Shown: positions 888 through 61,420, numbered from the stretch's first letter. The stretch: 64,000 nt of DNA from Gammaproteobacteria bacterium (GCA_965205405.1 OZ242169.1:333826-397825); one strand, 5' to 3'. Numbers and translations are program-made. Notes: a model not told the origin generated them from the sequence alone.

Positions 888-941
888 AAAGATGCTCCGA
901 AACTACCGGGGATACAATAACCGTGACCAAACCACCAGCGC

Positions 942-1026
942 ATATTTGGGGTCAGAGTAAAAATACTCAAGAATAACCCGACGCTACTTGCCAAGTTGAC
1001 TGTATTTTTACTCTGACCCCAAATAT
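942..1026. mobile_element. MITE-like hairpin element, copy 1 (TIR ATATTTGGGGTCAGAGTAAAAATAC; loop subfamily A)
   Basis: 25-bp terminal inverted repeats around a 35-nt loop, in the ubiJ–ubiE intergenic space. Confidence 0.85.
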
Positions 1027-1053
1027 ACAGTGCTGTCCGGACGCCTCCCTTCC

Positions 1054-2291: not shown

Positions 2292-2376
2292 ATATTTGGG
2301 GTCAGAGTAAAAACTCATATACGGTCTATAAGGAATCAGCAAAATCTGAAATGAGTTTTTACTCTGACCCCAAATA
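2292..2376. mobile_element. MITE-like element, copy 3 (extended stem ...AAAAACTCAT/ATGAGTTTTT)
   Basis: It exactly fills the gap between DUF971 (start 2274) and hslU (stop 2379). Confidence 0.85.
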
Positions 2377-2378
2377 TA

Positions 2379-5534: not shown

Positions 5535-5616
5535 CTTGGGGTCAGTGTAAAAACCCATTATCAGAATTTGAGAAACTTATAATCAGAATAAAACCGGGTT
5601 TTTACACTGACCCCAA
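5535..5616. mobile_element. MITE-like element, copy 4 (GTCAGTGTAAAAA variant TIR)
   Basis: It lies in the divergent intergenic region between the two ATP-grasp genes. Confidence 0.75.
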
Positions 5617-6506: not shown

Positions 6507-7442
<936 letters not shown>

Positions 7443-7537: not shown

Positions 7538-10500
7538 TTAATCAGGCAATACTTCTGCGGTGACTGCTCCGTCCGGGTATCCGGTCAGCAGCTTGCGCAG
7601 GTCGAACACCAGGCTCAGCATGGCGGGGACGATGAACAGGGTAAACACGGTGGAAACCAGCAGGCCGCCGACTACTACGCCGCCTATGCCCCGGTATAAC
7701 TCCGAACCGGCCCCCGGGGCGAGGATCAGGGGCAACATGGCAAAGGTTGAGGTGCCGGCGCTCATGAATATGGGTCTGATCCGATTTCGTACCGCTTCCC
7801 GGATCGCCTCGTGGGATTCCATCCCCGCTTTCCTGATATGGTTCAGGGACTGGTGCACGATCAATATGGGATTATTGACTACCGTACCCAGGAGGATGAT
7901 GAATCCAAGCATCGTCAATACGTCCAGGGGTTGATAGGCAATGGTCGCATTGACCAGGGCCAGGCCGATAAGTCCTCCCAGTATCGCCAGGGGTACGCTG
8001 AACATGATGACAAAAGGATATAGAAAACTCTCAAACAGGGCGGACATCAGCAGGAATGTGATGATGACCGCCAACACCAGGTTCCATTTCAGCGCGTCAC
8101 CCGCCGCCACCAGTTTATCGGCGCTGCCAGCCAATTCGGCGTTGTAGACACCACCGAAGTCCCCTCTTTCCTTCATGGGGCCGATGATCTCATTCTGTAT
8201 GATCTCCATTGCCGTTTCAGTGGGCATTTTCTCGGTGGGCAATACCCGGATAGTGATGGTCCGTTCCCTTTCCCGGTGGTTGATCTGTACCGGGCCGTAG
8301 GTGAGTGACACGTCAGCGATGGCGCCAAGCGTCACGAGACGGCCATCCGGCGTGGCGATGGGCATCTGTTCCAGCGTGTGGGTGCTGTGGATATAGCTGT
8401 CTTCAGCTTTCAGCCGGATATCGATTTCCTTGCCCTCATACTGGTAATCACTGACCTTGGCGCCATCCACCAGGGCATTCACCGTAAAGCCCAGGTCGCG
8501 ATTGCTTATGTCAAGTTGCGCGGCCCGGCGCCGGTCCGTAACCACCTGAAGCTCAGGGTTTCCCAGGTCCAGGCCGGGGATGGGAAAAGTCTGGGCGCCG
8601 GGTAATACAGCAAAGGACTTTTGAAAGACCTCCCCCCCCAGGGCAATCAGTCTTTCCAGTTCCGGCCCTTTTATTTCAACATCAATACTGCGGCCTTCAC
8701 CACTTTCTTCTTCAAAGATCCCCCATAGTTGCAGGATGGGGATAGCGCCGGGGACGCTGGACATGGCCTCGTGAAAGATCGGGTACAATTCTTTCGTCCG
8801 GCGCGGGTCGTTGGAGGTCACCCCCATAAAGATTACGCCACCCTCGAAACCATAGAAGAAAACATGCAGTCCGCCGCCGGGTAAAGCTTCCGCCTCGGGC
8901 GACCCGGCTGGATGTTCCATCAGGTCTTCCAATGCCCCGGAGAACACGCCGTGGATCCCGACCCGTTCCTCCACCGTATAGCCCGGCGGCGGCAGCAGCA
9001 GGCCAAACAGAAAATCGGTATCACCCGCGGGCAGGTACTCCGTCTCGGGTTTGATGACCAGGCTGATAATTACGGCCAGGGTAACGCACACACCCACAAC
9101 AAGCAGACGGCGCAGGACCGTAACATTGATCCAGTGGGATAATGAGGCAATCCGGTCCCTGACCGCCGAGGCCAGACGTACGCCCCCCCAGAGAGAGCGA
9201 AATCCGCCGGCGCTTGGGGTCTCTCCCGCTACGTTGAGGAGACGCGCCGACAGGGTAGGAATCACCGTTATGGCGATAATCAGGCTCAGGCCTACCGCGC
9301 AACTGATGGCAACCGCGATATCAGCCAGCAATTTTCCTATGTCTTCTTCTATCAACACCACAGGGGCAAATACGGCAATAGTTGTCAGGGTACTGGCCAG
9401 GACTGCCCCCCATACCTCAACAGCGCCGCTATACGCCGCGCTGAAAAAAGGTTGCCCGGCCTGCCGATGCCGGTAGATGTTCTCCAGGACCACGATGGAA
9501 TTATCCACCACCATACCGGTTGCAAACGCCATACCGGCCAGACTGATGACGTTGATGCTCCGACCGAACAGGGCCATCATCAAAAACGTCCCGACAATGC
9601 TGATGGGGATTGCGAGAGCGAGGATCAGCGTACTGCTGACGCTGCGTAAAAATATCAGCAATACGATAATCGCAAGAGTACCGCCGATTAACAGGTTATT
9701 GCGCACCAGTCCTATGGCGCTGTTGATGTAGCCGGTCTGGTCCCAGGCATGCACCAGTTGCAAACCGCGGGGACCCAGTACTTCCCGGTTGAGCTTTTCC
9801 TGCTTCTTCCTTACCTCGTCCATTATGTCCAGTTCATTCGCACCCGTCTGGCGCTGAATGTTCAGTGCGATACTTCTATTATACAGACTGAATATCGCTC
9901 CCGTTGGCTTCTTGTGGGTCAACTCGACCCGAGCTACATCCCGCAGGTAGATCGGCACGTTGTTGCGATTGGCAATGACGATGTTTTCCAGGTCTTGCGG
10001 GGATTGATATTCGCCCACGGTACGCACGATATAACGTCGCTTGCCTTCGTCAAAGTCGCCGCCGCTGTAATTCCGGTTTTCCCGTTCTATAGCGTCGGCA
10101 AGCTGCGTCAACGTCACCCGACGCAATGCCAGCTTTGCCGGGTCGACAATGACGTGGATCTCTGCTTCGCGACCGCCGTAGGTGTTGGCTGATGAGACGC
10201 CCTCCACCCGCTCCAGTTCGGGTATGACGTAATCATCGAGAAGATCATGCAAGGTGGATATATCGCCCTCGAAGCCGTTTTCCTCGGTGGGATCCAGGTG
10301 GAACCAGGCTATCGCTCCCGAGACACCGGACTGACCCGAAATCACCGGCTTCTCAACGTTGGTGGGATAGGACTCCACCTGGTCCAGGCGGTTCGATACC
10401 TTGAGCCTGGCGGCATCCTTATCGGTACCCGTCTGAAACCGCAGCGTGATCACACCGCTGCCATCCTGGCTTTCGCTACGCATTTGCACCAGTCCTTCCA

Positions 10501-10720: not shown

Positions 10721-11805
10721 GGAGACGGGTAAGCGATCAGTTCACCCTGGACAGGCTGGCCAGGCTGCAACCTTTCATTGCCGCGGGTAATCACCTTATC
10801 TCCCGGGGAAACATCACCGTCTACCACAGTCCACAACCCCATGGCGGCGCCGGGCGTCACCGGCGCCGGGATGGCGCTGCCTCCTTTGACCAGGTATACC
10901 ACAGTAATACGACCCTGGCGGACGATGGCGTCCTTGGGGACCAGCGTACCTACCGTGGATTGTCCCAACGGAAACGTCGCTCTGGCGAGCATTCCGGCGC
11001 TGATATTTTCGCTGGAATTGCTTAGTCGCAATTTAACCGTGAAAGTATGGGCACTGGTATCCACCCTGGGAATGAGCGCGCGGATATAGGCCGGATAAGT
11101 CTGGCCGGGGTGGGAGTCGAAGGTAATGCTTGCCTCCACACCAACTTTAAGAGCATTGAAATATTTCTCCGGCACATCCACGTGAACTTCCTGGATATCC
11201 GTAGATAAAACTTCCAATACGCTGTCGCCAACCTTACTCCACTGTCCGACTTCAGTATAGCGGGAAACCACTACACCATTAAACGGCGCGCGGATCGTGC
11301 TCCGGTTTATATCAAATTGAATACTTGCTATCTCTGCGCGCAATGTTTCGATGCGGCCCTGCCAGGCGTCGAATTCATATTGTGATTCATCAAGTTGCTG
11401 AGGTGATATGGTCTTGGATTCAACCAGACCCCTGAACCGTTCCAGGTTTTTTTCCGCCAGCTTCTCCCGTGCCTGCGCTTCTTTCAATCTGGCTTGAGCG
11501 GCCTGCAGTTTCAATTCCAACGGCGTGGTGCGGAGCATCACCAGGGCTTGACCCCTGGCCACTCGATCCCCTTCCCTTACCTTGAGTTCCGTCACCAGCC
11601 CATCTATTTCACTGGCAAGCACACTGACGTTGGGCGCTTCGACATAACCTGGCAATTGCACTGTCTGTTCGACCGGTTGTTCGATCGCCTCGGTATAATT
11701 TACCGGGGCTGCCCGTTGCACGTCCTCCTGACCGTAAACCGTTGCGGCTGAACAGGATAGGAAAAGGAAAGCTTCCAGGAAACTGATAACTGCTGATTTA
11801 GGCAT
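10717..11805 (-). CDS. RND efflux periplasmic adaptor (membrane fusion protein)
   Basis: A 362-aa ORF with a signal peptide, coiled-coil and biotinyl-like domains, overlapping the pump gene by 4 bp. Confidence 0.85.
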   Translation of the reverse strand: MPKSAVISFLEAFLFLSCSAATVYGQEDVQRAAPVNYTEAIEQPVEQTVQLPGYVEAPNVSVLASEIDGLVTELKVREGDRVARGQALVMLRTTPLELKLQAAQARLKEAQAREKLAEKNLERFRGLVESKTISPQQLDESQYEFDAWQGRIETLRAEIASIQFDINRSTIRAPFNGVVVSRYTEVGQWSKVGDSVLEVLSTDIQEVHVDVPEKYFNALKVGVEASITFDSHPGQTYPAYIRALIPRVDTSAHTFTVKLRLSNSSENISAGMLARATFPLGQSTVGTLVPKDAIVRQGRITVVYLVKGGSAIPAPVTPGAAMGLWTVVDGDVSPGDKVITRGNERLQPGQPVQGELIAYPSP

Positions 11806-11851
11806 TTTTCAGTTATCAGCGGTTAATACGCCTGTGATCCTTATAAAAAAA

Positions 11852-12346
11852 CTAAGAACCATCGGCCACTTCGTTAATTCGACCCGTGGCGCAATCGTAG
11901 ATAAAACCATGGATCCGATCCTTGTGGGGAATGAACGGACTGACGCGGATACGGGCCATGGATTGGCGCACATTCTGCTCCAGGTCTTTGAATGCTTCCA
12001 GTGCAAACGCCGGCCTCAGGCCGGTGTCGGCTTCGATTTCGTCTTTGAAAGCGTCATCGCGAAAGGTAAGCATCCCACAATCGGTATGTTGTATCAGCAC
12101 TATTTCCCGTGTCCCCAGCAGGCGCTGGGAGATCACCAGTGAGCGGATTACATCGTCACTGACTACAGCGCCGGCGTTGCGTATTACGTGTGCATCGCCT
12201 TCTACAAGACCCAATACCTGGTGGGGGTCCAGACGAGCGTCCATACAGGCTACTACCGCCAACTTTCGCGCCGGCGGCAAAGGCAGATTGCCCTTATCAA
12301 AGCCCTCGGCATAGCGGGCGTTGTTAAGGAGGAGTTCATCTATCAT
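11852..12346 (-). CDS. β-class carbonic anhydrase
   Basis: A 164-aa ORF with the zinc-ligand motifs CMDAR...HTDCG. Confidence 0.75.
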   Translation of the reverse strand: MIDELLLNNARYAEGFDKGNLPLPPARKLAVVACMDARLDPHQVLGLVEGDAHVIRNAGAVVSDDVIRSLVISQRLLGTREIVLIQHTDCGMLTFRDDAFKDEIEADTGLRPAFALEAFKDLEQNVRQSMARIRVSPFIPHKDRIHGFIYDCATGRINEVADGS

Positions 12347-12437
12347 GGTCGTCAGCTTATTAACAGGTTGATCCAGAGGCTACACAGGCTACCACAAGCA
12401 GAAAAAGAGAAAAAGGGAACAGATTTATTTTCCCGCG

Positions 12438-12490
12438 ATATTTGGGGTCAGTGTAAAAATACAAAGAATTTTTACACTGACCCCAAATTT
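12438..12490. mobile_element. MITE-like element, copy 6 (minimal 53-bp hairpin with GTGTAAAAA variant)
   Basis: ATATTTGGGGTCAGTGTAAAAATAC-aaagaa-TTTTTACACTGACCCCAAATTT, lying between the carbonic anhydrase and the IMPase gene. Confidence 0.85.
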
Positions 12491-12491
12491 C

Positions 12492-13289
12492 TTAGTTCAG
12501 TAATTCCAGGGTTTCTCCGTGTAATTTTTCGCCGGCCGCGGCGATGATCATTCCACCGTTTACCGCAGTATTACCCTGCCAGTCGGTAATAATGCCGCCG
12601 GCGCCTTCAACAATCGGGATCAGGGGCATAATGTCGTAAGCCGAAAGACCACCTTCTATGACCAGGTCAACATAACCCCCGGCCAGCATCCCGTAACCAA
12701 GACATTCCGTCCCAAAGCGGGAAAACTGACACCTGGAAGCCACGTGCATAAATTTTTCCCGCGTCTCATCCGTCGGGTACATACTGGGGTGGGTACAGCA
12801 CACGATGGACTTGTCCAGGCTTTCAGACCGGCGCACTTTCATCCGCTTGCGTTCCCCTCCCCGGATAAAATAAGCGGTATCTCCGTCGCCTAAATAGGTC
12901 TCTTTAACGTAGGGTTGACGCATGCCGCCGACCAGGCATTCATCAGCCTGTTTCAGTCCAACCAGCACTCCCCACATGGGCGAACCCGAGATGAAGCCCC
13001 GGGTGCCGTCAATGGGATCAATCAACCAGGTAAACGAACTTGCGCCGCCTTTTGCGCCAAATTCCTCGCCGACGATGGCGTGGTCAGGGTATTCTTCGCT
13101 GATTCTCTGCCGGATAAATTCCTCTGTTTCCCTGTCAGCCTGGGTAACGGGATCATAAGCTTTACCCTTTTGGCGTTTATCAGTCACCGTCAGGTTGCCG
13201 CGGAAATGTTTCAGCGAAATCTCACCGGCCTGTTCGATCATCGTCTCCAGGAATACCAGATATTCTGCGGCTGCTTGGGTATTATTCAT
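12492..13289 (-). CDS. Inositol monophosphatase family protein (SuhB/HisN-like)
   Basis: A 265-aa ORF with the IMPase motifs WLIDPIDGT and a DD metal-binding site. Confidence 0.8.
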   Translation of the reverse strand: MNNTQAAAEYLVFLETMIEQAGEISLKHFRGNLTVTDKRQKGKAYDPVTQADRETEEFIRQRISEEYPDHAIVGEEFGAKGGASSFTWLIDPIDGTRGFISGSPMWGVLVGLKQADECLVGGMRQPYVKETYLGDGDTAYFIRGGERKRMKVRRSESLDKSIVCCTHPSMYPTDETREKFMHVASRCQFSRFGTECLGYGMLAGGYVDLVIEGGLSAYDIMPLIPIVEGAGGIITDWQGNTAVNGGMIIAAAGEKLHGETLELLN

Positions 13290-15038: not shown

Positions 15039-15593
15039 ATGAAAAAATTTCTTCGCGATACCAATATCAATACTGAGCGATTCCGCGTCGGCATGGCGCA
15101 ACTGACCGGCGCCGTGAATATTATCGCCACCCGTAACGGCGACGTCCGATCAGGGTTGACCGCAAGCGCTGTTTGCTCTTTTTCAGCAGAACCCGCTCGC
15201 CTGCTGGCCTGCGTGAACTTCAGCGGCAACAGTTTTCAGCATATAGCAGAGAGCCGCTGCATGAGCGTCAACGTGCTTGCACAGAGCCAGGAAACACTGG
15301 CTAAACGCTTTGCCGACATGCTCGGTGATAATCGTGAAGACCGTTTTAAATACGGGAAGTGGATAGAACTGGTAACCGGGGCGCCGGTGTTGGAGGAGGC
15401 ACTGGCCGGTTTTGATTGCACCGTGGAAGAAATGCTGGTCGCCCATACCCACGCGGTCATCATCGGCGAGGTAAAGGACGTAATCGTCAATGGCGGCAAG
15501 AAACCTCTACTCTACTCAAACCGGGCGTTTACCACCACCATGGGCCATTATGATGACCTGCACCTGGATTACAGCATGTCCCCCTGGTATTAA
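15039..15593 (+). CDS. NAD(P)H-flavin reductase (HpaC/RutF-like)
   Basis: A 184-aa flavin reductase-like domain. Confidence 0.75.
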   Translation: MKKFLRDTNINTERFRVGMAQLTGAVNIIATRNGDVRSGLTASAVCSFSAEPARLLACVNFSGNSFQHIAESRCMSVNVLAQSQETLAKRFADMLGDNREDRFKYGKWIELVTGAPVLEEALAGFDCTVEEMLVAHTHAVIIGEVKDVIVNGGKKPLLYSNRAFTTTMGHYDDLHLDYSMSPWY

Positions 15594-15609
15594 GCTACAG
15601 GGAATTTTT

Positions 15610-15840
15610 GCCACAGAGGACACAGAGATCACAGAGATAAGTGTTTAATGCCTTCATGGAGTCTGGTGACGCCAAGTGATTAACAGACTTCGTCTTAGTC
15701 CGGTCTTTTTAAGTAACCGTAGCAACCGGGGACAAATTTAAATCTGCCCCAGTCATTTAAGATGAATTGATAAACAAGCAGGTTCCCCCCACATTAAAAA
15801 GATTCTCGATCCACTCTGTGATCTCTGTGTCCTCTGTGGC
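15610..15840. repeat. Perfect 27-bp inverted repeat (GCCACAGAGGACACAGAGATCACAGAG) bracketing a 177-bp core
   Basis: The copies at 15610-15636 and 15814-15840 are exact reverse complements. The element lies between the convergent hpaC-like and MFS genes. CACAGAG is reiterated three times inside each arm. Confidence 0.8.
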
Positions 15841-15845
15841 TAAAG

Positions 15846-17219
15846 TCACACTCGCAAATTGCCTCTTTTGAACGAGAAATAAACGCCGGCGAAACATAGC
15901 AGAGAGGTAACGATAAAGCTGGCGTTGATGCTGGCAAGTAAATTTCCGTGTTGTTCCGGCGAAATCTGCACGGGGCCTAATACCAGCGCAAAAACAAGGG
16001 TCACAATCCCCATGCTGAACATCTGTCCCACCACGCGCATGGTCGCTATTGTCCCGGCAGCCGAGCCCAGGTGTTTCCTTTCCACCGAACCCATGACGGC
16101 ATTGGAGTTCGGTGAGGAAAATAGTGAAAACCCGAGACCAATAACAATTAGAGCGGTCACAACGAATAGCGTTGACGTCTGCAGGTTCAGCATGGCGAGC
16201 AAAGCCAGGCCGATCGCGGTTAAGCCCATGCCCGAGGAAGCGAGGAGGCGCGGTTCATGCCGGTCAGACATCCTGCCTGCCAGCGGGGAAAACAATGTCA
16301 TCACCAGGGGTTGGGAGATCATGACTAAACCGGCAAACTGAGGGGTAAATCCCTTGATATTCTGCAAGTACAGGCTCATTAAAAACGTCAGCGAGAACGT
16401 GGAGGAATACATGATCAACGCGGCCATACAGGAGTAGCTGAATACCTGGTTATCGGTAAAAAGGTTGACATTGAAGAGTGGATGTTCCAGTTTCTTTTCG
16501 TACTTGAAAAAAACGGACAAGCCGATACCACTCAGTATGATCAGCATAGCGCCGAATGCGGTGGGCAGTTCAGAGAAGCCATACATCAGGGCTATCATCG
16601 AAGCGCCATAGATAATGGCGCCGGGAAAATCAAACTTTTGTCCTGCCGGGCCGCGCCACTCTCCTTTTAAATTAACCAGCGCCACGATAATAACCAGGAT
16701 CACCAACGGAACGTGGAAAACAAACACGCTGCGCCAGCCGAATTGCTGGGTAGCCCAACCACCGATAAACGGTCCGCAGGTCAACCCAAGGTAAACGAAT
16801 GAAACGGACAATCCCAATACTCTCCCGCGTTTCTCCGGAGGAAAAACGGAAGACAGGATGGCAATACCGGTGCCAAACAACATTGCCGCACCCATTCCCT
16901 GCAATACCCGGCACAGGATCAATATCAGCGGCGTTTGCGCGAGGGATGCAAGAATCGACGCAATGGTCACCGTCGTCATGCCCGACAGGAACATTTTCTT
17001 GCGACCATACATGTCACCCAGGCGTCCGAACGGCAATAAAAATACGGCGCTTGATAACAGGTATGCCAGGGGAATCCAGCTTGCTGTGATCGCATCGATT
17101 TGCAACCCTTCTACAATAGTCGGGATGGCCACGTTTACGGCCGATAACATCAGCGGAGTAATAAAAGCGCCCATGCAGACCACTATGAGCGCCGTTCTTT
17201 GCAGGGTTTGTTCAGACAC
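15846..17219 (-). CDS. MFS transporter (DHA2/EmrB-like, 14 TMS)
   Basis: A hydrophobic 457-aa ORF with MFS motifs. Confidence 0.85.
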   Translation of the reverse strand: MSEQTLQRTALIVVCMGAFITPLMLSAVNVAIPTIVEGLQIDAITASWIPLAYLLSSAVFLLPFGRLGDMYGRKKMFLSGMTTVTIASILASLAQTPLILILCRVLQGMGAAMLFGTGIAILSSVFPPEKRGRVLGLSVSFVYLGLTCGPFIGGWATQQFGWRSVFVFHVPLVILVIIVALVNLKGEWRGPAGQKFDFPGAIIYGASMIALMYGFSELPTAFGAMLIILSGIGLSVFFKYEKKLEHPLFNVNLFTDNQVFSYSCMAALIMYSSTFSLTFLMSLYLQNIKGFTPQFAGLVMISQPLVMTLFSPLAGRMSDRHEPRLLASSGMGLTAIGLALLAMLNLQTSTLFVVTALIVIGLGFSLFSSPNSNAVMGSVERKHLGSAAGTIATMRVVGQMFSMGIVTLVFALVLGPVQISPEQHGNLLASINASFIVTSLLCFAGVYFSFKRGNLRV

Positions 17220-19762: not shown

Positions 19763-19877
19763 GATATTTGGATATTTGGGGTCAGTGTAAAAACTCTTGA
19801 CAGATTTTACCAGTACCTGAGATTCCGAATATGAGTTTTTACACTGACCCCAAATATCTACTGACCCCAAATATCTA
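19763..19877. mobile_element. MITE-like element, copy 7, with flanking partial repeats
   Basis: TIRs lie at about 19772-19794 and 19833-19857, with an extra ACCCCAAATATCT solo end. Confidence 0.85.
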
Positions 19878-22032: not shown

Positions 22033-22082
22033 GGGTTTATTAATTATTAGTTACCGTAAATCGGACCATTATAACAGGAGGG

Positions 22083-22200
22083 ATATTTGGGGTCAGAGTA
22101 AAAATACTCAACAATAAATCAGCACCGCCAGCTTCGTTGACTGTATTTTTACTCTGACCCCAAATATCTTACTCTGACCCCAAATATCACCCCAAATATC
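22083..22200. mobile_element. MITE-like element, copy 8 (subfamily A), plus two tandem solo right-TIR fragments
   Basis: The full element spans 22083-22166, followed by TTACTCTGACCCCAAATATC and ACCCCAAATATC repeats. Confidence 0.85.
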
Positions 22201-32247: not shown

Positions 32248-32330
32248 ATATTTGGGGTCAGAGTAAAAATACTCAACTATTATCTGAGGCCATCAGCCAA
32301 CTTGAACGTATTTTTACTCTGACCCCAAAT
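32248..32330. mobile_element. MITE-like element, copy 9 (subfamily A)
   Basis: It lies between the receptor stop codon and the start of the M24 hydrolase gene. Confidence 0.85.
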
Positions 32331-34528: not shown

Positions 34529-34543
34529 GGATGCTGTCTGGTG

Positions 34544-34680
34544 ATATTTGGGGTCAGAGTAAAAAGATATTTGGGGTCAGAGTAAAAATACGGGCAATCC
34601 GGTAGATTGTGTTGCTGTACTATTAAGTATTTTTACTCTGACCCCAAATATCAAGTATTTTTACTCTGACCCCAAATATC
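34544..34680. mobile_element. MITE-like element, copy 10 (subfamily B loop CGGGCAATCCGGTAGATTGTGTTGCTGTAC), with a half-copy on each side
   Basis: The full element spans 34567-34650. Solo TIRs lie at 34544-34565 and 34654-34680. Confidence 0.85.
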
Positions 34681-34719
34681 TATAAGTAACTTTTTCTCTA
34701 CTACTAAAAGGAGATACTC

Positions 34720-46541: not shown

Positions 46542-46634
46542 ACTTTATGTCCTGTGTGAAGGATATTTGATGTGCGCCTTCCCTGGCACACACCCTGCGG
46601 GCGTCCTGCGGACCTCCAAATCCGCTCCTGGCGG

Positions 46635-46719
46635 ATTTGTGGGGTCAGAGTAAAAATACGGCCAATCCGGTAGATTGTGTTGCTGTGCTATTAAGTATTT
46701 TTACTCTGACCCCAAATAT
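46635..46719. mobile_element. MITE-like element, copy 11 (subfamily B; loop nearly identical to copies 10 and 14)
   Basis: It lies between ilvC and pssA. Confidence 0.85.
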
Positions 46720-46739
46720 CACAGTTGACCCCTGATGCC

Positions 46740-61229: not shown

Positions 61230-61275
61230 ATATAATTTAACCGGACAATGGCTCTTTTCTTACATCGCACTGAAG

Positions 61276-61360
61276 ATATTTGGGGTCAGAGTAAAAATAC
61301 TTAGTAGTACAGCAACACAATCTACCGGATTGGCCGTATTTTTACTCTGACCCCAAATAT
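61276..61360. mobile_element. MITE-like element, copy 14 (subfamily B, in inverted orientation relative to copies 10 and 11)
   Basis: Its loop is the reverse complement of the copy-10 and copy-11 loop. It lies in the divergent promoter region between the SDR gene and the symporter. Confidence 0.85.
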
Positions 61361-61420
61361 CTGGCAGGAGTTAGCGGGAACTGCTTTTCATACGCCACAC
61401 TCGAGCAGGGGGATAAATCA

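Follow-up and report, generated by a model that had tools for sequence, protein, structure and literature searches.

Between the convergent flavin-reductase and MFS transporter genes of a gammaproteobacterial genome there is a perfect inverted repeat, which raises the question of what kind of element such a palindrome is and how it came to be there. The initial annotation of this DNA had left three options: a miniature transposable element (MITE), a terminator serving both genes, or a structured RNA. Here the repeat was studied in a window of 64,000 nucleotides (the whole stretch of DNA that was analysed) and by comparison with related assemblies, species-representative genomes, viral contigs and plasmids. 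The best explanation, to which we give a probability of roughly 0.6, is that the element is an ORF-less hairpin cassette, similar in kind to the intervening sequences (IVS) of rRNA and belonging to a widespread class of palindromic elements. Its appearance is that of selfish DNA inserted into the gap, not of a terminator or an RNA gene.

Layout of the element

The repeat itself was confirmed in all essentials. Its arms, GCCACAGAGGACACAGAGATCACAGAG and the exact reverse complement, are complementary at 27 of 27 positions, both when the sequence is read directly and with a repeat finder, which also returned the 177-nt core, and each arm consists of GC followed by CACAGAG GA CACAGAG AT CACAGAG (Table 1). 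The arms are complementary over 31 nt at 97 % once the TTTT/AAA flanks are counted. The element comprises 231 bp, i.e. most of the 252-nt intergenic gap, and lies between convergent genes as had been claimed, the flavin reductase being of the HpaC/RutF type and the MFS transporter of the DHA2 type; a gene for a HpaB-like oxygenase is located upstream. The description of the core as AT-rich holds only mildly, its G+C content being 42-44 % compared to ~53 % in the flanking genes. Folding of the 251-nt region gave −94.6 kcal/mol on the plus strand and −97.4 kcal/mol on the minus strand, far below −40 kcal/mol, as had been anticipated, and a z-score of about −8 on either strand. This stability stems from the arms.

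A search for the 27-mer, which had been suggested for the genome, was run in the 64-kb window and returned only the two arm sites (0 of 100 shuffled sequences had any match). Identical 27-mers were found in other loci, namely L009, L080 and L106 and the viral loci L140, L148 and L162. When the core was compared by blastn with all the sequence used in this work, the sole match was its orthologue in L122, and the element had no blastn match in complete E. coli genomes or PLSDB plasmids. L122 is an independent assembly, 97.5 % identical to the window, and it carries the same 252-nt gap with zero differences, which excludes an assembly artefact and means that the repeat is real.

Table 1 Features of the window (positions counted from its first nucleotide)
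Feature	Position	Strand	Remarks
Flavin-reductase gene (ORF)	15039-15593	+	HpaC/RutF type
Gap between stop codons of the convergent genes	15594-15845		from ORFs and families; hairpin insertion hot spot
T-run outside left arm	15605-15609	+	corresponds to T-rich prefix of module consensus TTARC, but T instead of A at −3
Left arm, one module	15610-15636	+	CACAGAG at 15612-15618, 15621-15627, 15630-15636
Core (loop)	15637-15813		177 nt, non-coding, unique, several short internal stem-loops
Weak terminator-like site	15792-15778	−	no more than shuffles give
Right arm, same module inverted	15814-15840	−	CTCTGTG AT CTCTGTG TC CTCTGTG GC
TAAA outside right arm	15841-15844	+	mirror of T-run, contains TAA
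MFS transporter gene (ORF)	15846-17219	−	DHA2 type
Second-family hairpin	933-1035		
Second-family hairpin	2292-2377		
Second-family hairpin	5536-5616		
Second-family hairpin	6534-6620		
Second-family hairpin	12437-12491		missing from L122 (14761-14767)
Second-family hairpin	19771-19858		
Second-family hairpin	22077-22193		missing from L122 (6055-6064)
Second-family hairpin	32250-32330		
Second-family hairpin	34542-34681		arms doubled (nested)
Second-family hairpin	46634-46720		
Second-family hairpin	61274-61362		

The intergenic gap as an insertion site

Close relatives of the MFS protein were found in uncultured gammaproteobacterial assemblies only, and the syntenic gap was compared in nine relatives (L121-L124 and L593-L597). 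The CACAGAG element is sporadic among them: it is present in the window and L122, and absent or replaced in L121, L123, L124 and L593-L597. L121, a conspecific strain, is ~96 % identical to the window and its MFS protein is identical to that of L122. Its gap retains only CTTTAGCCACAGA, after which follows a different, 87-bp hairpin of the GGGGTCAGAG family, while the adjacent flanks of L121 and L122 are identical except for the stop codon of the reductase gene, which is TAG in L121 instead of TAA. In the more distant relatives L123 and L597 the gap contains degenerate GGGGTCAGAG hairpins, and in L124, L593 and L595 a palindrome of a third family, GGTTCAGG..TTCAAGAC (ACGGGTTCAGGTGGGCTTTTCAAGAC...). 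The gap is empty in L596, also more distant (10 nt), and in L594 (15 nt); L594 and L595, with an empty and a filled site, respectively, encode identical MFS proteins.

Since the gaps of relatives are either empty or otherwise filled, the window element is DNA that was inserted and can be replaced, with replacement occurring at the level of strains. Hairpin DNA is tolerated in the gap and has entered it repeatedly, from at least three families, and the empty gap is probably the ancestral state. L121 and L122 differ over the entire gap and in the reductase stop codon, so that the exchange could have been a recombinational replacement instead of transposition. L121 also lacks the hpaB-like oxygenase gene (11531-13094), which is present beside the flavin-reductase gene in the window, L122, L123 and L124.

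The other two hairpin families have features of their own. About a dozen hairpins of the GGGGTCAGAG family occur in the window, with conserved arms, GATATTTGGGGTCAG(A/T)GTAAAAATAC, and loops of 7-63 nt, which are mostly unrelated (Table 1). Partial duplications of the arms trail elements of this family at 19851 and 22161. The junctions at the two hairpins missing from L122 are imprecise: one loss alters the last codons of a hisN-like gene, and at the site of the other 8 nt of filler remain. The third family was found at L124 11390-11519, L593 2878-3007, L595 2887-3035 and L009 3200-3350. In L009 the third-family copy is enclosed by CACAGAG arms, and the hairpin lies in a co-directional gap, 20 nt upstream of a start codon.

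The CACAGAG module

Each arm of the window element is an instance of a module of 27-29 nt, composed of RC and three CACAGAG heptads with two free, mostly purine bases as spacers, the heptads thus being spaced 9 nt apart. Species-representative genomes (GTDB) and viral contigs (IMG/VR) were searched with a pattern of three CACAGAG units with two free bases between them, and the module was found in at least 120 loci of the former, representing many phyla, and in at least 120 of the latter. Carriers among the matches listed include Planctomycetota, Acidobacteriota, Chloroflexota, Bacteroidota, Cyanobacteriota, Gemmatimonadota, Bacillota, Chlamydiota, Actinomycetota and several classes of Pseudomonadota. 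The cultured Gemmatirosa kalamazoonensis has the module at 23 and 19 places on two megaplasmids; further cultured carriers are Pseudoalteromonas shioyasakiensis, Bacteroides finegoldii, B. ovatus, Nostoc, Anabaena and Calothrix, and small gut phage records carry it as well.

A logo of 268 non-redundant modules gave the consensus TTARC-CACAGAG-RA-CACAGAG-RN-CACAGAG-R, with T at positions −5 and −4 in 68 % and A at −3 in 55 % of the modules. The outer flanks in the window are TTTTT and TAAA, so that position −3 is T compared to A in the consensus. The number of units is almost always exactly three, with rare expansions up to eight (L116, L007). One arm may have 5-8 heptads when the partner arm still has three (L116 345-465, L007 5639-5699, L006 2579-2621), which shows that the arms act as unstable tandem repeats as well.

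Modules are usually paired in inverted orientation, 4-300 nt apart, with the CAC strand as the 5' arm. When a 16-of-25 match was used as the cut for a partner, up- and downstream alike, a partner was found downstream of the CAC strand for 85 of 116 genomic and 30 of 131 viral modules. Upstream partners were found for about 5 of the 116 genomic modules, explained by adjacent hairpins, and for about 4 of the 131 viral ones. The window hairpin conforms to this one-sided rule, with its inverted partner 177 nt downstream of the CAC strand. Owing to the inversion, either DNA strand has its purine-rich arm on the 5' side.

The constant prefix, the three-unit rule and the one-sided partner were all absent from three control heptad sets, in which 0 of 136, 0 of 25 and 0 of 30 modules had an inverted partner. 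The number of hits was dropped as a mark of CACAGAG, as the control GACCAAG is also abundant, via coding (collagen-like) tandem repeats; CAGACAG matched 25 loci and the single-substitution variant CACAGAC 34. It is the architecture, not the hit number, that distinguishes CACAGAG. The sister heptad CACGGAT has the same prefix, unit number and one-sided partner rule, and other sisters (CGCAGAT, CACGAAG, CACGGAA and CACGAAT) are nested in, located beside or paired with CACAGAG modules. No recurrent protein family emerged among the ORFs located up to 400 nt from 120 genomic modules, and none of the ~270 modules belonged to a pair with a transposase-sized ORF inside. Likenesses to the DnaA box, CRP, sigma-54, boxA, IHF, LexA and RSS-like sites, judged by eye against consensus sequences, were partial or not general and were dropped.

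The modules also affect gene calling, as they yield spurious ORF extensions (e.g. HRGHRDHRE and TEDTEITE), and masking is advised for annotators. A B. finegoldii CDS annotated as a 'zinc ribbon domain-containing protein' (L511 7741-8856) has its start within a CACAGAG-type hairpin that lacks an ORF and whose arms are at 8698 and 8838, and is probably an over-extended gene call.

Conservation of the module rather than the stem

In 112 hairpins the match from arm to arm was 83-100 % for the heptads and 92-96 % for the RC prefix, but only 27-51 % for the four spacer positions. The heptads are thus ~92 % conserved between paired arms and the 2-nt spacers essentially uncorrelated, from which it follows that the module is kept and not the stem. 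As the spacers differ freely, the two arms are independent instances of one module, and no palindrome is kept by pairing or homogenisation. As RNA, most of the hairpins would consist of 7-bp helices broken by 2x2 internal loops. Selection for RNA pairing left no signature in the sense strands of the nuclease cassettes described below, with 13 G.U and 17 A.C mismatches and hence no excess of G.U. Complementarity of the flanks beyond the RC/GY pair was only 48-65 % (52 hairpins). With both spacers complementary, the window copy belongs to a minority, since a 25/25 match occurs in 6 of 116 genomic hairpins. The perfect identity had been taken to imply either a recent event or strong constraint, and in the light of this small number a recent event is a reasonable choice; the perfect arms of the window copy fit a recent origin.

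Single modules in phage contigs sit right after genes, in sense orientation. A long same-strand ORF ends within 20 nt upstream of the module in 36 of 95 cases, compared to 11 of 95 for the opposite orientation, and in 21 of 123 phage single modules the ORF terminates at a TAA, TAG or TGA that lies within the TTARC prefix. Crude ORF-based measures of module orientation relative to the coding strand were uninformative. Two IMG/VR contigs, L148 (9556-13341) and L165 (1437-10798), contain six modules each, and one module in L148 fills the whole space from the stop codon of one gene to the start of the next. The conservation of the heptads is explained neither by base-pairing nor by coding.

Modules around PDDEXK_3 nuclease genes

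In B. finegoldii (L511) an inverted pair of the CACAGAG type exactly brackets a gene encoding a 124-aa GxxExxY protein (PF13366, PDDEXK_3, E = 2e-43). The left side reads TTCAC-CACAGAG-GA-CGCAGAG-GA-CACGGAG, followed by 26 nt and the ATG, and on the right side the TAA is followed by 9 nt and CTCTGTG-AC-CTCTGTG-TC-CTCTGTG-GTGAA. L511 also contains two ORF-less pairs, one of which lies between convergent genes, as in the window.

The association was also observed from the protein side. A search with an alignment of 17 family members yielded 80 metagenomic loci, of which 72 had enough flanking sequence. The best 20-nt inverted match between the flanks was at least 16/20 in 52 of these 72 PDDEXK_3 loci, compared to 17 of 72 in the direct-orientation control, and the matched sequences are modules, e.g. 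TTCACCACAGAGGACACAGAG, TTTTACCACGAAGAACACGA, TCACCGCAGAGACGCAGAGG, CACCACAGATTAC... With a strict two-unit pattern, 32 of 70 loci had a forward module upstream and 36 of 70 a reverse module downstream; the wrong orientation gave 9 and 6, respectively, and far flanks 12 matches in 59 kb. The arms hug the nuclease gene, the median distances to the start and stop codons being 16 and 9 nt, respectively. The heptads of the cassettes were CACAGAG (18), CACGAAG (6), CGCAGAG (5), CACAGAT (5), CACGGAG (4), CATGAAG (3) and CGCGGAG (1). Co-variation of heptad and protein was negligible (61 % protein identity for pairs with the same heptad, 57 % for pairs with different ones). This near-independence of heptad type and protein similarity speaks against a simple code in which each protein is specific for its own heptad, and to judge from the sequences, heptad type appears to follow the base composition of the host more than such a code.

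The cassette nuclease has a length of ~125 aa, and the structures closest to its confident model (pLDDT 95.7) are those of Cas4 SSO0001, lambda exonuclease and RecE; a solved relative of the GxxExxY family was not found by sequence. The family has been described as having no assigned function, as having been transferred multiple times between divisions and as being present in viruses (PMC3424549). There is no PDDEXK_3 gene or remnant in the core, in the window or in ~110 kb of its relatives, and what connects the window element to the cassettes is therefore the shared arms alone. The window copy may be a non-autonomous derivative of the nuclease cassettes or a landing site for them.

S23p genes and rRNA intervening sequences

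S23p is the ORF of the intervening sequences in the 23S rRNA of Coxiella and Leptospira, and its four-helix-bundle family also includes the DGR accessory protein Avd. Intervening sequences occur in the 23S rRNA genes of Salmonella and Yersinia as well. S23p genes were sampled on plasmids of Calothrix, Anabaena, Geminocystis, Azospirillum, Riemerella and Nostoc (L598-L604), using a probe that approximates the family consensus; the matches were validated in that they carry the annotation 'four helix bundle protein' or 'S23 ribosomal protein'. Six of the seven sampled genes were bracketed by inverted tandem-repeat arms, with the purine-rich side 5', analogous to the arms of the nuclease cassettes. 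The repeats were GGGTGTA (x4) in Calothrix, GTGACAG (x3-4) in Anabaena, of GGGAAAA type in Geminocystis and Nostoc, GGTTCAA in Riemerella and GACAGAG/GACGGAT in Azospirillum.

The Coxiella IVS has been described as a selfish element of 428 nt with an S23p ORF and a 28-bp terminal inverted-repeat stem, which is cut by RNase III (PMC4990558). The interior of an IVS contains a small S23p ORF or is ORF-less and ~100-150 nt long; the elements are sporadic among strains, and horizontal transfer has been inferred (PMC4990558). The IVS is thus the closest described counterpart of the window element, because the two share the length of the terminal inverted-repeat stem (27 bp, perfect, in the window and ~28 bp in Coxiella), a variable interior with an optional small ORF and a sporadic distribution among strains. 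A further likeness is seen in the S23p genes located elsewhere than in rRNA, which also have inverted arms of tandem repeats on either side. The window element differs from the IVS in its location between protein-coding genes and not in helix 9, 25 or 45 of 23S rRNA, Rfam finding no rRNA there. The cargo is also different, the CACAGAG module carrying a PDDEXK_3 nuclease and the IVS S23p. The arms of the window element are the CACAGAG heptad module, and the likeness to the IVS is drawn from published descriptions.

Alternative explanations

A position between convergent genes and a very stable stem would suit a bidirectional intrinsic terminator of the flavin-reductase and MFS genes, and genomic hairpins of the CACAGAG class do tend toward gene ends. 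The order of the flanking runs is, however, the reverse of what a terminator has: read along either strand, the stem comes after a T-run and before an A-run, which leaves no U-tract 3' of the hairpin, the sequence after the stem being TAAAGTCACA on the plus strand and AAAAATTCCC on the minus strand. A consensus scan gave no terminator site at the arms, a loop of 177 nt is far outside terminator geometry, and relatives have gaps of 10-15 nt with no hairpin. In addition, the module occurs single and partnerless in phage contigs. The long-stem bidirectional terminator proposed in the initial annotation is thus quite improbable. The structured non-coding RNA, in which the arms would close a functional fold of 177 nt, fared worse still and is hardly credible. 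It would account for the z-score on both strands and for a gap 100 % identical between genomes that differ by 2.5 % elsewhere, but the stability is due to the arms, and the core is not conserved, its homologue being found only in the L122 orthologue. A conspecific strain has an unrelated hairpin at the same place. Rfam gave only a chance match to MIR398 in the window element (21 bits compared to a gathering score of 55, E = 0.095) and only tRNAs in 14 other module-bearing loci, and a consensus scan found no promoter-like site at the element.

The MITE came closest of the three options raised initially, in that the element was inserted, can be replaced and is bounded by defined terminal inverted repeats, in a window with a second abundant hairpin family. 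A classical MITE would be a deletion derivative of an IS with a DDE transposase, mobilised in trans via its terminal inverted repeats. The perfect 27-bp repeats, the short non-coding interior and the presence in some conspecific genomes and absence from others agree with this, as do the arrays of repeated motifs at the ends, since repeated subterminal motif arrays, such as those in the ends of Tn7 and Mu, are typical transposase binding sites. Nevertheless, no target-site duplication was detected in 52 hairpins (no direct repeat of at least 3 nt above chance; the window flanks are TTTTT and TAAAG), the interiors are unrelated between copies even in one lineage, with no second copy of the window core in the sequence compared apart from the L122 orthologue, the arms differ freely at the spacers and no transposase stands beside the ~270 modules. 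A classical MITE is therefore unlikely. Spread as a REP/REPIN-type element by a RAYT (HUH Y1) transposase would explain several of the same features: short intergenic inverted doublets that form hairpins, no target-site duplication, imprecise junctions and a high turnover by gain and loss between strains, in a lineage rich in such hairpins. The arms, on the other hand, start with GCCACAGAG, lack the GTAG or CGTC tag and are not palindromic when taken singly, and the window has one CACAGAG copy compared to ~12 of the other family. REP sequences are lineage-specific but the module is common to phyla and phages, and the associated gene encodes a PD-(D/E)XK nuclease here and a Y1 HUH transposase in REP/REPIN systems. 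This explanation is likewise quite improbable. Roles in the protection of mRNA 3' ends have been proposed for REP/REPIN elements.

Two further systems bear comparison with the IVS-like cassette proposed here. The Correia elements of Neisseria are also intergenic and have terminal inverted repeats of ~26 bp and a short non-coding core, and their transcripts are substrates of RNase III (PMC2649163). They differ in having a TA duplication and a conserved core; CACAGAG hairpins have neither, their cores being unrelated. Integron attC sites resemble the modules in their imperfect inverted repeats with a variable centre, located right after the stop codon of the cassette ORF, and about one third of the modules end in AAC...GTT, like the R''/R' boxes. 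The window element, in contrast, has TTTTTGC and GCTAAAG, not RYYYAAC and GTTRRRY, and perfectly paired arms with no extrahelical bases, and partnerless single modules are common in phages.

Interpretation and implications

If the window element is an IVS-like cassette without an ORF, the copy in this genome may have been acquired or rebuilt recently, which would explain its perfect arms. The free spacers and the lack of an RNA-pairing signature suggest that the heptad array is recognised as DNA, and spread would depend on this recognition, for which the cassette nuclease or recombination between modules might be responsible. If read-through from the neighbouring genes covers the element, the perfect 27-bp duplex would be a substrate of RNase III, as in the rRNA IVS, and the putative cut would define or shield the 3' ends of the two mRNAs, unlike an intrinsic terminator.

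A broader reading, which we put forward tentatively and at somewhat less than even odds, is that the heptad modules (CACAGAG and the sisters CACGGAT, CACGAAG, CACAGAT, CGCAGAG and CATGAAG) are the termini of undescribed selfish cassettes around GxxExxY/PDDEXK_3 genes, with a parallel set around S23p. The rRNA IVS would then be the only manifestation described so far, hairpins of the window type would be miniatures or landing pads, and the Cas4-like nuclease or recombination between modules would drive the spread. The arms were found to be undescribed in literature searched for the motif strings, GxxExxY, PF13366 and S23p, with few subscription journals covered, and the sole match to a motif string was a primer in a B. 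fragilis paper. Compared to this literature, the conservation of the module across phyla, the sister heptads and the bracketing of GxxExxY genes appear to be new; intergenic hairpin repeats (REP/REPIN, MITE, IVS) are of a kind already known.

In this genome the element amounts to a short stretch of DNA, mobile or replaceable, that occupies a tolerant site and has no obvious physiological role. The interest lies in the class rather than in the single copy of the window, as one module is common to Planctomycetota, Acidobacteriota, Chloroflexota, Bacteroidota, Cyanobacteriota, Gemmatimonadota, Bacillota, Pseudomonadota and phages. By its position around their genes, the module provides a concrete and testable genetic context for the GxxExxY (PDDEXK_3) proteins, which are among the largest families of small proteins without an assigned function, and also for the long-unexplained origin of the intervening sequences of rRNA.
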